From IMG/VR virus record IMGVR_UViG_2695420874_000001, positions 1-9,825 of that record: a DNA stretch of 9,825 bases. One strand, written 5' to 3'. A program made the position numbers. Below, piece by piece: positions 1 through 3,000 of this stretch. The stretch's first letter is position 1; every line of letters starts with the position of its first letter. This stretch comes from a virus. Taxonomy: Duplodnaviria; Heunggongvirae; Uroviricota; Caudoviricetes.

Positions 1-3000
1 TGGCAGACGCTGGAGCTGGTGTTCACCGCCGGCAGTGCCACGGTTACTCCGAAACTGAATGGAGTGGCTGGCCCGGCATTCCAGGTTATAAAAGACGGTC
101 TGACACTGGGACTGAATGCGCTGACGCTGACGGATGTTACAAAAAATGCAGCGTATGGCGTTGAGATAGAAAGTCTGGTGCTGGAGATAAATGCACCGGC
201 AGCATAATAAAAAAAGAGCCAGCGACTGACCTGAAAGAAGACGCTGGCTAAAAGGCCTTATATGTTTGTAGAGACTTATTTTTCACAGACAGCAATGATG
301 CCTGTCAATATATTATCAATATGCGGATTGTTTCAGTTACAGATGCTTTATTAAGGAAAAAAACAGCCAGCACTGACTTTCGGTGGAGAGGTGCTGGCTC
401 AGAAGGATAGTTGGATTTCACATGATACTTATGCCTGGCGGTATATTTTCTGACAGACAGTGACGGGTGTTGTCAAGATATTGTGTCATTTATAACCTGA
501 ATCAGGGGAGGCCGGAATGTTATCTGGCATTTTTAGCAGAGCCTGAATGCCATAATCACGGCTCCCGGAGTTGGCCGTCAGTGGGTGACACTGGCGGTTT
601 TTTTGTTTTTCTTTACTTTCATTTTCTGTCGGCGGTGACGGAGACATACATCAGATGGAAAAAATCACAACGGGTGTGTCATACACCACGTCAGCGGTGG
701 GGACGGGATACTGGTTACTGCAGCTGCTGGACAAAGTCTCTCCGTCCCAGTGGGTGGCAATCGGTGTGCTGGGGAGTCTGCTGTTTGGCCTGCTGACGTA
801 TCTGACTAACCTTTATTTCAAGATTAAAGAAGATAAGCGTAAGGTGGCGCGGGGAGAGTAGTCGATGAATAAACAATACGAACTGGTTGTAAAATGAATA
901 TTTCTAACTGAAAAAACGTTCCATGAGGTAAGAAAAGGTCACAGGCAATCAATAACAGGACGTGATGAAAGCCCCTTGCATTTGTGCGCTTTCTCTTTAG
1001 ATAGCAGCAGATACTGAAAATCTGAGTTGTCGGGGAGTCAGGGATACAGCTGTGCAAGAGTTGGTCATTGTGATTCCATTGAAATCCTGTATGCCATGAA
1101 GGGCAGGATTTTATGGCTACCTGAGCTTTGGTGATAGTAAGTTGAAAATTCGCATTTTTTGCTGACATGCGTAACGAGAATCCCATAAGCAGGGAGGACT
1201 TAATTCTTCATTAACCCATGCGTTGATATTATGTTTCAGCCGTTGAAGCATCAGCGGTGTTAATGTTGTGGTAATAATATCCAGCGTTTTATGTGAGATC
1301 TTACCGTAAGGGTCTGCAAGAATGCTGCTTGTTGCTTCGTTATTATCTGCCATCAGAAGAAGTAACTCTGATTTAACGTTTTCTGTCATTAGTTGTAAAA
1401 ATCTTCTGCGCAAACTTTCTTTACTGTTCATTTATATGGCTTCATTTGTTGTAATCTGCTGCGTCTCAAGGGATATGTTTATGAGAGCGACCATGAGTGT
1501 TGGATTATATACCTAACATATCAAGGGATTAGAAATCGATAAATCCCCATGAACGAAAAAATAAAATACGGCCTGTCGGCTGCCGTTCTGGCGCTGATTG
1601 GTGCAGGTGCTTCTGCGCCTGAAATCCTCGACCAGTTTCTGGATGAAAAGGAAGGTAACCACACCACGGCATACCGTGATGGTGCGGGGATCTGGACCAT
1701 CTGCCGTGGTGCCATTCTGGTGGATGGTAAGCCTGTTATTCCTGGCATGAAGCTGTCAAAGGAAAAATGCGACCGGGTTAATGCCATCGAACGTGACAAG
1801 GCGCTGGCATGGGTGGAGAAAAACATCCGGGTGCCGCTGACCGAACCCCAGAAAGCGGGGATCGCGTCATTCTGTCCGTACAACATTGGCCCCGGTAAGT
1901 GCTTCCCGTCGACGTTTTATAAACGAATTAATGCAGGCGATCGAAAAGGTGCCTGTGAGGCGATTCGCTGGTGGATTAAGGACGGTGGCAGAGACTGCCG
2001 TATCCGTTCAAATAATTGCTACGGTCAGGTCTCACGGCGTGACCAGGAGAGCGCGCTGGCGTGCTGGGACATCGACAGATAGCAGAATATTTTCCTGAAA
2101 AATGACGTTGGCCAACGCGGGTGGATAACACGAAATCCTGAAAACTGGTAAAACCTAAGTGAATAAAAGTAAAAACCCCGTTTGTTGGCAGCAAGCGGGG
2201 TTTTGTGTTTTCTGACCTTGAGTAAGGCAAGGGAGAAATTATGGGTAGGGAGGTACTTTCCCTGTGAGGAAGTATAAAAGATTCTTTCTGAGGTTGTCCA
2301 TTATGAAAGGCATTGAAGTGGAGACGCCAGCCAGTCTGGATTTAACAAGAGCGGCAGCTTTTGCCATTCGTATTGTGGCCATTGCTGTTCTGGTCTGGGC
2401 AATCCGTTGGTGGTGATATGAACCGTGTTCTGTGCGTGGTTATCATTGTCCTGCTGGTGGCCTGTGGTGCGCTTAGTCTGGGGCTGAATCATTACCGTGA
2501 TCACGCCATCATCTACAAAGAGCAGCGCGATAAAAAAGCCAGTGAGCTGGAGCTGGCGAACGCGACAATTACTGATATGCAGGTACGCCAGCGTGATGTC
2601 GCTGCACTTGATGCCAGATACTCGAGGGAATTAGCCGATGCGAGAGCTGAAAATGAAACTCTGCGTGCTGATGTTGCCGCTGGTCGTAAGCGCCTGCGCA
2701 TCAACGCCAACTGTCCAGGCTCCTTGCGTAAAGCCCCCATCACCTCCGGCGTGGATAATGCAACCGGTCCCCGACTGGCAGAAGCCGCTGAACGGGATTA
2801 TTTCATCCTCAGAGAACGGCTGATGGCAATGCAGAAGCAACTGGAAGGAGCACAGGAATATATCCGTACCCAGTGTATACCGTGATGTTTTGTTATGAAG
2901 GTGTTACTGGTAACGTTAAGGTAATTTAACAAAGAGTCAGTTCCGGACTTTATAGTGTGCTCAGTTCATGGACAAAAACGATTTCTGTGATAAATATTTT

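Follow-up and report, generated by a model that had tools for sequence, protein, structure and literature searches.

The window studied here is a stretch of 9,825 nt from a tailed-phage record (IMG/VR virus record IMGVR_UViG_2695420874_000001, positions 1 to 9,825), and it represents the late region of a lambdoid, Shiga toxin (Stx)-phage-like Escherichia coli prophage. At its 5' edge lies the last part of a nanS-p-type gene for a sialate O-acetylesterase, with the stop at 205-207. Then follows a lysis cassette in which the holin gene S and the endolysin gene R are separated by a gap of 687 bp (862-1548), with the Rz gene (PF03245) downstream of R. The subject of this report is a small gene, here called gene X, which lies in this gap on the strand opposite to S and R. 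The original prediction had placed the end of S at 861, the start of R at 1549 and a 104-aa open reading frame (ORF) on the opposite strand at 1117-1431; the Pfam-matched S and R confirmed these coordinates, and the ORF exists. The three genes are as follows.

655-861, plus strand: S, an S21-type class II holin (pinholin) of 68 aa (PF04971, E 1.9e-32; class II holin in the annotation of strain C3)
1117-1431, minus strand: gene X, encoding a 104-aa protein (Sakai ECs_1097; phrog_1853), identified from the phrog_1853 match, 28 alleles, the substitution pattern and a structure model
1549-2082, plus strand: R, a 177-aa lysozyme with a hydrophobic N-terminus (signal-anchor-release (SAR)-type endolysin; PF00959, E 7.6e-24)

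S forms the left border and R the right border of the slot, and R is divergent from X. Bases 600-1700 showed 100% identity with a prophage of strain C3 and were present at >=80% coverage in 618 of 5426 complete E. coli genomes, and the spacer alone was found at >=99% identity in 621 records of the same set. X is thus carried by about 11% of complete E. coli genomes, roughly one in nine.

X was the only conserved ORF in the S-R gap. It had been described as the only protein-like ORF there, which holds as regards conservation; as regards number, two further ORFs overlap the gap, namely a minus-strand ORF of 120 aa (824-1186), for which neither a Pfam nor a PHROG match was found, and a plus-strand ORF of 64 aa (1322-1516). 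The latter was annotated in earlier versions of Sakai as ECs1098, a gene that RefSeq no longer includes; in the supplement of Hucker et al. (2017), ECs1098 is listed with low RNA-seq/ribosome-footprint values of 24/13.6, 30/3.8 and 6.5/1.0 reads per kilobase per million (RPKM).

X matched the phrog_1853 profile hidden Markov model with an E value of 3.5e-47, residues 1-102 aligning to profile positions 57-158. The first 56 profile positions, which were unmatched, probably reflect genes called too long, of which the 188-aa ORFs at loci L068 and L076 are examples. The 159-position PHROG profile had prompted the idea that X is a truncated form of a longer protein, which we rejected: the ATG is immediately preceded by a stop codon, and the extended versions seen in some loci consist of R read in antisense. 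The family is tiny: a set of 5.8 billion proteins yielded 16 clusters and one of 1.84 billion yielded 20 representatives, and full-length members are nearly all 104-107 aa. In 85 loci drawn from IMG/VR, GenBank phages and E. coli genomes, we found 28 distinct X coding sequences, reaching down to 50% amino-acid identity, and length and start were kept in alleles down to 21-50% identity across different phage backgrounds. X is probably also present in other Enterobacteriaceae, a range that rests on a few metagenome or assembly contigs; a scan of species-representative genomes found no X copy.

The ratio of nonsynonymous to synonymous substitutions (dN/dS, Nei-Gojobori) in X was 0.14-0.35 in pairs with unsaturated synonymous distance (for instance, 0.19 for the window versus L005, 0.19 for L053 versus L056 and 0.27 for L003 versus L085), and it remained well below 1 across synonymous distances of 0.1-1.7, which shows that X is a conserved protein-coding gene under purifying selection. 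The AlphaFold2 (AF2) model, built on an alignment of only 8 sequences, consists of five helices with a predicted local distance difference test score (pLDDT) of 86, and by eye the protein is basic, soluble and devoid of a signal peptide and a membrane span. X matched no Pfam family at E <= 0.1 and no NCBIfam family, and three diverse alleles matched none of the PADLOC defence and toxin-antitoxin models at E <= 1. A profile search of Protein Data Bank (PDB) sequences gave noise only (best E 0.15), and a Foldseek search of the model against BFVD returned nothing below E 0.8. In strain EDL933 the gene is named 'unknown protein encoded within prophage CP-933O'. The X family is annotated already, yet wholly uncharacterised, and X would be a fairly ordinary prophage accessory gene.

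The opposite view holds that the spacer consists of debris without coding function, the 104-aa ORF being a chance or decaying frame. The missing Pfam and NCBIfam families, the weak ribosome-binding site (RBS), the unclear promoter and terminator, the annotation of only 90 aa and the debris of ydfR adjoining X, all described here, would agree with this view, and so would the frameshifted or shortened copies of X that exist (P0011-P0016, L061-L063). The substitution pattern effectively refutes it, however, and both the conservation of length and start in alleles from different phage backgrounds and the confident fold prediction from so few sequences speak in the same direction, so that we regard it as extremely improbable. 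Relatives with the same spacer and no conserved ORF had been named as the sign of a non-coding remnant; in the relatives found, the ORF is conserved instead.

X starts at the first ATG (1431) after an in-frame TAA. In RefSeq, the Prokaryotic Genome Annotation Pipeline (PGAP) calls X as 90 aa from 1389. Since ATG 1431 and the first 14 residues are conserved, with F11, L12 and Q13 nearly invariant, and since many homologs have no Met at the PGAP start (Met-15), comparison of the alleles indicates that the 90-aa call is probably too short and that the ATG of the 104-aa form is the true start.

When the window was compared with the S-ydfR-R cassette of phage YYZ-2008, homology was found at 1-900 and 1511-2176 only. 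An insert of about 690 bp had been proposed; a differing segment does exist, and relative to the S-ydfR-R cassettes it is precisely 901-1510 (610 bp). The GC content was 36-45% in this segment vs 51-57% in R, and bases 901-1116 were found in E. coli only together with the window X allele. The suggestion of an inserted gene was well founded, as X is conserved, is under purifying selection and lies in the 610-bp AT-rich segment that replaces ydfR. The features of the spacer are given below.

865-897, plus strand: remnant of the first 10 codons of ydfR, reading MNKQYELVVK and then TGA, aligned with the ydfR start of YYZ-2008 and Sakai Sp12
901-1510: AT-rich segment that replaces the ydfR body of sister cassettes and holds the second remnant, X and the X upstream region (from the YYZ-2008 comparison and the GC profile)
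938-1156, plus strand: degraded C-terminal ~70 codons of a long-YdfR/phrog_1085 gene with three in-frame stops (tblastn)

The N-terminus of intact YdfR reads MKKKYELVVKG, and the long-YdfR genes begin with MNKQYELVVKGI in L058 and MNKKYELVVKGI in L068. At 938-1156, tblastn gave 39% identity over 41 aa (E 4.5e-4) and 33% over 73 aa (E 0.003). This remnant lies at the exact syntenic place and on the expected strand, and is homologous to orf5 of Stx2 phage 86, a late-strand gene whose first 100 residues match DUF1327 (E 3.7e-45) and whose C-terminal half matches phrog_1085. The 104-aa protein itself, for which a relation to YdfR/DUF1327 (PF07041) had been raised, did not match this family; it is orf5 of phage 86 that does. 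As a lead, ydfR was right for the other strand, the plus-strand spacer DNA deriving from a ydfR gene displaced by the segment. Likewise, the notion of a degenerate remnant applies to 865-897 and 938-1156 and fails for X. These alignments show that the spacer outside X is the wreck of a long ydfR gene, with X intact.

The slot between S and R occurs in the following states.

empty, S and R contiguous: E2348/69 PP2
a short ydfR: YYZ-2008 and Sakai Sp12
a long ydfR and no X: Stx2_95 (L094; Stx2a phage Stx2_95, 1135-2124, where a gene for a 329-aa long YdfR fills the S-R gap)
a long ydfR converging on X: Stx2 phage 86 and many IMG/VR loci
a pseudogene and X: the window
X only, 47-93 nt from S: L059, L060 and L063

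The S-R gap is a recombination slot for ydfR-type genes and their wrecks, and the spacer of the window is one variable state of this slot, rather than an insertion into a compact phage-21 cassette. The statement that R follows S closely is true of E2348/69 PP2; many S21-type cassettes hold ydfR in the gap.

The placement of X followed a strict rule. In 84 of 84 E. coli-type loci with X, the gene lay between the holin and an R-type lysozyme gene on the opposite strand, and the distance from the X start to the R start was 86-160 nt in nearly all E. coli loci. S and R were 86-100% identical in most loci, and X diverged down to 50%. Distant homologs leave the rule of lying between S and R and keep a wider one. 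In L093 (a genome assembly), the order is Q, further genes, a 185-aa gene converging on X, then a divergent S21-type holin gene, lysozyme, Rz and terminase. At L090 and L091, X faces a 184/185-aa gene tail to tail and diverges from the gene for a lambda-S-type holin (PF05106) with the endolysin gene after it, an HNH gene being intercalated at L090; in L089, X is divergent from an HP1-type holin gene (PF16080). X lies upstream of the holin gene and is transcribed away from it in all four of these loci, which are those with readable flanks, and its orientation and position were constant across them and the 84 loci. The C-domain of the 184/185-aa proteins is the phrog_1085 domain also found in orf5 (42% identity, E 2e-29), and the 3' ends of X and the phrog_1085-type gene are 9 nt apart or overlap by 33 nt. 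In phage-86-type cassettes, a gene of 650-1150 bp lies between X and S. The conserved rule is that X opposes the late operon in which it lies, diverges from the lysis gene that comes next and usually converges on a phrog_1085-type gene. Such stubborn synteny suggests a functional tie of X to lysis or to the phrog_1085 protein, and positional inheritance among mosaic lambdoid phages could explain it equally well.

If the tie were to the phrog_1085 protein, X would be one half of a two-gene module with the long-YdfR/phrog_1085 gene, for example a lysis-timing pair or an inhibitor and its target, whose expression would be coupled by the converging or overlapping 3' ends; the window would then carry an orphan whose partner died. 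Arguments for such a module are that the convergent pairing occurs in three settings (in the S-R gap, 5' of an S21-type holin gene and 5' of a lambda-S-type holin gene) and that the partner remnant sits in the window exactly where it would be expected. However, the 329-aa gene of Stx2_95 lacks X, which indicates that a phrog_1085-type gene can stand alone, and X persists with a dead partner in about 620 genomes. The loci with only 47-93 nt between X and S likewise imply that neither gene needs the other, and the defence and toxin-antitoxin models gave no match. The two genes as an obligate pair were rejected outright, each being found without the other, and we consider the two-gene module rather unlikely.

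The candidate expression signals at the 5' side of X are listed here.

1504-1509, minus strand: candidate -10 hexamer TATAAT for X with a predicted start near 1497 (promoter search; the -35 is poor)
1428-1445, minus strand: upstream ORF of five codons (MKPYK), whose TGA overlaps the X start (ATGA) and which holds the Shine-Dalgarno-like GAAG (read from the sequence)

The best -35 for TATAAT 1509-1504 matches at 2/6 positions, hence its absence from the consensus scan. The hexamer, a perfect match to the consensus just within the AT-rich segment, survives in L052, L005 and L056 although the bases around it have changed; L053 and L059 have a degenerate form, and the distant group lacks it. At the RBS position, 8 nt 5' of the X ATG, the window reads GAAG; the five closest relatives have GAGG in three cases (including L052 and L005) and GAGA in two (L053 and L056), and the more distant alleles have GAGGA. 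The ORF had been said to lack an obvious RBS, and GAAG is indeed weak, although it occupies the very place at which the relatives carry these motifs. The ATG-N12-TGA layout of the upstream ORF recurs in L052, L005, L053 and L056.

Downstream of X, neither the consensus scan nor folding revealed a leftward intrinsic terminator between 1117 and 690, and the hairpin just past the X stop (1082-1111) is weak and has no U tract. The RNA past the X stop is C-rich and G-poor, with a C/G ratio of about 2 over 1118-990, which fits Rho-dependent termination of the X transcript without demonstrating termination. A structured RNA on the minus strand of 640-1130 was considered and rejected, the 491-nt fold being unremarkable (z = -0.8), and Rfam returned nothing in the spacer. 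Distant alleles carry a conserved GC-rich hairpin (CAGCCCGYCAGYG-loop-CACTGGYG) 57-71 nt 5' of the X ATG (L003 ~3880-3965, L093 ~3905-3998 and L090 ~1320-1420; also L002 and L065), and a short upstream ORF beginning ATGGCTGA comes after it. This hairpin is absent from the window allele and had no Rfam match, and the only changes in its stem are G-U-compatible on the X-sense strand alone, which hints that in the distant-allele phages the X strand is transcribed from further upstream.

Two terminator-like hairpins beyond the holin gene (365-399 and 217-249) had been noted in the original prediction as possible ends of leftward transcription. Both are real and oriented leftward, each consisting of a stem and U7 on the minus strand, with dG values of -17 and -16 kcal/mol, respectively, and z = -3.5 for the second; Rfam had no match at either. 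Terminator-like sites are generally dense here, with 9 in 1-2400 vs 2.1 +/- 1.4 in shuffled sequences. The two hairpins belong to the following RNA.

357-441, minus strand: major 85-nt form of the small RNA (sRNA) PasA, with hairpin 365-399 as its terminator (probe identity, E2348/69 alignment, fold and EcOnc35)
206-356, minus strand: extension in the 236-nt minor form of PasA, a PasC-like second unit with hairpin 217-249 as its terminator (E2348/69 alignment, fold and terminator scan)

The sRNA PasA depends on Hfq, is encoded on the minus strand and occurs as a major form of 85 nt and a minor form of 236 nt (PMC8550237). Its Northern probe GCCAGCACTGACTTTCGGTGGAGAG (Pearl Mizrahi 2021, PMC8550237, Table S6) is identical to window 369-393. 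The major form, E2348/69 743499-743415, corresponds to window 441-357, and the end of the minor form (743264) to window ~206, so that the minor form overlaps the esterase stop codon. The seed and the 3' ~60 nt (two-thirds) of 357-441 are identical to E2348/69 PasA and the first ~25 nt differ; the window PasA is a sequence variant with a diverged 5' ~25 nt. Its place between the sialate esterase gene and the holin gene is that of E2348/69, and the Sakai Hfq peak EcOnc35 (Tree 2014; 1186583-1186656, plus strand) equals window 447-374, that is, PasA, beside the X-bearing cassette. The genes pasA, pasC and pasD1 typically adjoin the holin/lysozyme operon directly (Zhu, Shabalina and Storz 2026). 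These matches show that both hairpins are PasA terminators, separate from the X unit. On the minus strand, the motif TTGACA ... CTGTCTGT ... AAAAT precedes each of the two units, with TTGACA at ~476-471 and 320-315, respectively. The sRNA HnrS (EcOnc10-12) was also considered, and the window showed no similarity to it.

With the hairpins assigned, the proposal of an antisense control of the holin can be judged. It holds that a transcript from the X promoter crosses S and ends at 365-399 and 217-249, the ORF being secondary, and that leaky or premature holin expression would be damped by transcriptional interference or duplex RNA. In the window allele, no element resembling an intrinsic terminator separates X (stop at 1117) from S, strong leftward terminators appear only beyond S, the orientation of X is invariant, and the PasA 5' end may come from cleavage of a longer transcript (Zhu et al. 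2026), all of which would suit this proposal. However, selection acts on the X protein; X lies upstream of the holin gene and points away from it in L093, L090, L091 and L089; and the 650-1150 bp gene separates X from S in phage-86-type cassettes, so that an antisense unit overlapping the holin gene is not a property of these relatives. The hairpins end PasA, which was mapped and is expressed in E2348/69 PP2, where S and R are contiguous and X is absent; as a weak negative, no Hfq peak antisense to the holin gene ECs1100 is listed for Sakai; and the C-rich untranslated RNA past the X stop is a likely Rho substrate. As a conserved role, antisense holin control is therefore not supported, and we judge it quite unlikely for the window as well. 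Because relatives separate X from S, any crossing of S would be a by-product of ydfR decay here, and because this decay put X within 255 nt of S, read-through across S may occur in the window allele.

A moron in the sense of Hendrix and Juhala is reportedly an extra gene found in some relatives only, with deviant base composition and expressed from the prophage. X is present or absent between conserved genes in close relatives and differs from its flanks in base composition, and has no intrinsic terminator of its own downstream. We consider it probable that X is a moron-like accessory gene which has its own promoter, is active in the lysogen and occupies a variable slot of the lysis cassette. 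The ancestral slot would have held a late-strand long ydfR (DUF1327 plus a phrog_1085 C-domain) converging on X on the opposite strand; in the window lineage ydfR would then have decayed, leaving its N-terminal 10 codons and a stop-riddled C-terminal remnant with X intact. Because X points against the Q-dependent late operon, we infer its own promoter, for which TATAAT 1509-1504 would be the candidate, giving a 5' untranslated region of ~66 nt and translation from the weak RBS. In the lysogen, with the late operon silent, X would be expressed weakly, and late transcription would overrun it after induction. Considering its size, its fold and the lack of motifs, the protein probably acts by binding protein or nucleic acid, not as an enzyme. 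Given the lack of an intrinsic terminator and the C-rich untranslated RNA, the transcript would probably end by Rho, within the pseudogene or the 3' part of S.

Several observations weigh against this proposal. The promoter amounts to a lone -10 hexamer in AT-rich DNA with no usable -35, not kept in L053, L059 or the distant alleles; the RBS is weak in the window allele; and a terminator is missing, unlike in a textbook moron. Regulation of X may also differ between alleles, the hairpin and upstream ORF of the distant group being missing here. ECs1097 was not mentioned in the literature searched, nor is it listed in the supplements of the Hfq cross-linking and analysis of cDNA (CRAC) or Sakai ribosome-profiling studies. 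In Sakai Sp4 (L087, NC_002695 1182130-1186375), the X-bearing cassette (ECs_1100, ECs_1097 and ECs_1096) is inverted relative to the esterase gene, with IS629 and pchA in between, and is thereby cut off from the late promoter; X is intact there, which is compatible with an independently expressed accessory gene and no proof of one. Finally, the constant lysis-gene neighbourhood may mean a role in lysis that the term accessory gene understates. Carried further, this would make X, alone or together with the long-YdfR/phrog_1085 protein, an unrecognised cytoplasmic component of lambdoid lysis cassettes, expressed in the lysogen, that would hold back the holin-endolysin system or set its timing, for example to guard against leaky late transcription. 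It would explain why X always lies backwards beside the first downstream lysis gene, with at least three holin families; we hold it to be a speculative and unlikely extension.

Other features of the cassette were recorded beside these. A late-strand terminator-like hairpin with a T run (573-599, plus strand) lies 55 nt 5' of the holin start and is kept in E2348/69 and YYZ-2008; late transcription has to pass it, presumably by Q antitermination. The R-Rz gap (2083-2417, about 335 bp) contains a strong terminator at 2172-2204 (plus strand; 15-bp stem and T run) and a sigma-70-like site with a 10/12 match at 2300-2271 (minus strand), and in related Stx phages this gap is occupied by the ant gene. 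The Rz coordinates differ in the PGAP annotation of strain C3, which means that the window may differ from C3 there. A weak Rfam match to STnc400 at 7299-7375 (minus strand; 23 bits vs a gathering score of 80, E 0.74) is probably noise, being essentially a terminator hairpin.

Carriers of X include O157:H7 strains Sakai and EDL933 and many other Shiga toxin-producing E. coli (STEC) and enteropathogenic E. coli (EPEC) strains, and X lies among the genes responsible for the release of Shiga toxin and phage. Should X influence the timing of lysis or the leakiness of late expression, it would also matter for the release of toxin and for prophage stability. The present analysis also corrects the annotation of X from 90 to 104 aa, assigns the neighbouring hairpins to PasA and gives a synteny rule for the gene. 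In Sakai (NC_002695), where a window coordinate equals 1187030 minus the Sakai coordinate, X occupies 1185599-1185913 on the plus strand.

Among known systems, the phage 21 cassette has the same holin and lysozyme families with Rz downstream; unlike in phage 21, S and R of the window are 687 bp apart, and the R-Rz gap of 335 bp holds a strong terminator. PasA/PasC (PMC8550237; Zhu 2026; EcOnc35/51/52, Tree 2014) match the window in hairpins, seed, strand, place and both 3' ends, and PasA is independent of the S-R spacer. Many Stx phages, and the Qin prophage between its essQ and rrrQ genes, encode YdfR (DUF1327) in the S-R slot where X is found; YdfR differs in being encoded on the late strand and is unrelated to X, which sits in the segment that displaced ydfR. 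The closest described counterpart in a phage is orf6 of Stx2 phage 86 (BAF34038), 53% identical to X, likewise 104 aa long and antisense between S and R. Phage 86 differs in having the intact convergent orf5, a good GAGGA RBS and the conserved upstream hairpin, none of which is found in the window allele. The protein of Sakai (ECs_1097) and EDL933 (CP-933O) is the product of essentially the same gene as X, called with the 90-aa start. Bor of phage lambda is a lipoprotein with a signal sequence, whose phenotype is serum resistance. Unlike Bor, the X protein is predicted to be cytoplasmic, and its gene lacks a terminator and has a candidate promoter. Like lambda bor, X is a small extra gene beside the lysis cassette, directed against the late operon, patchy among relatives and deviant in composition, and by analogy with this layout, expression from the prophage would therefore be expected.

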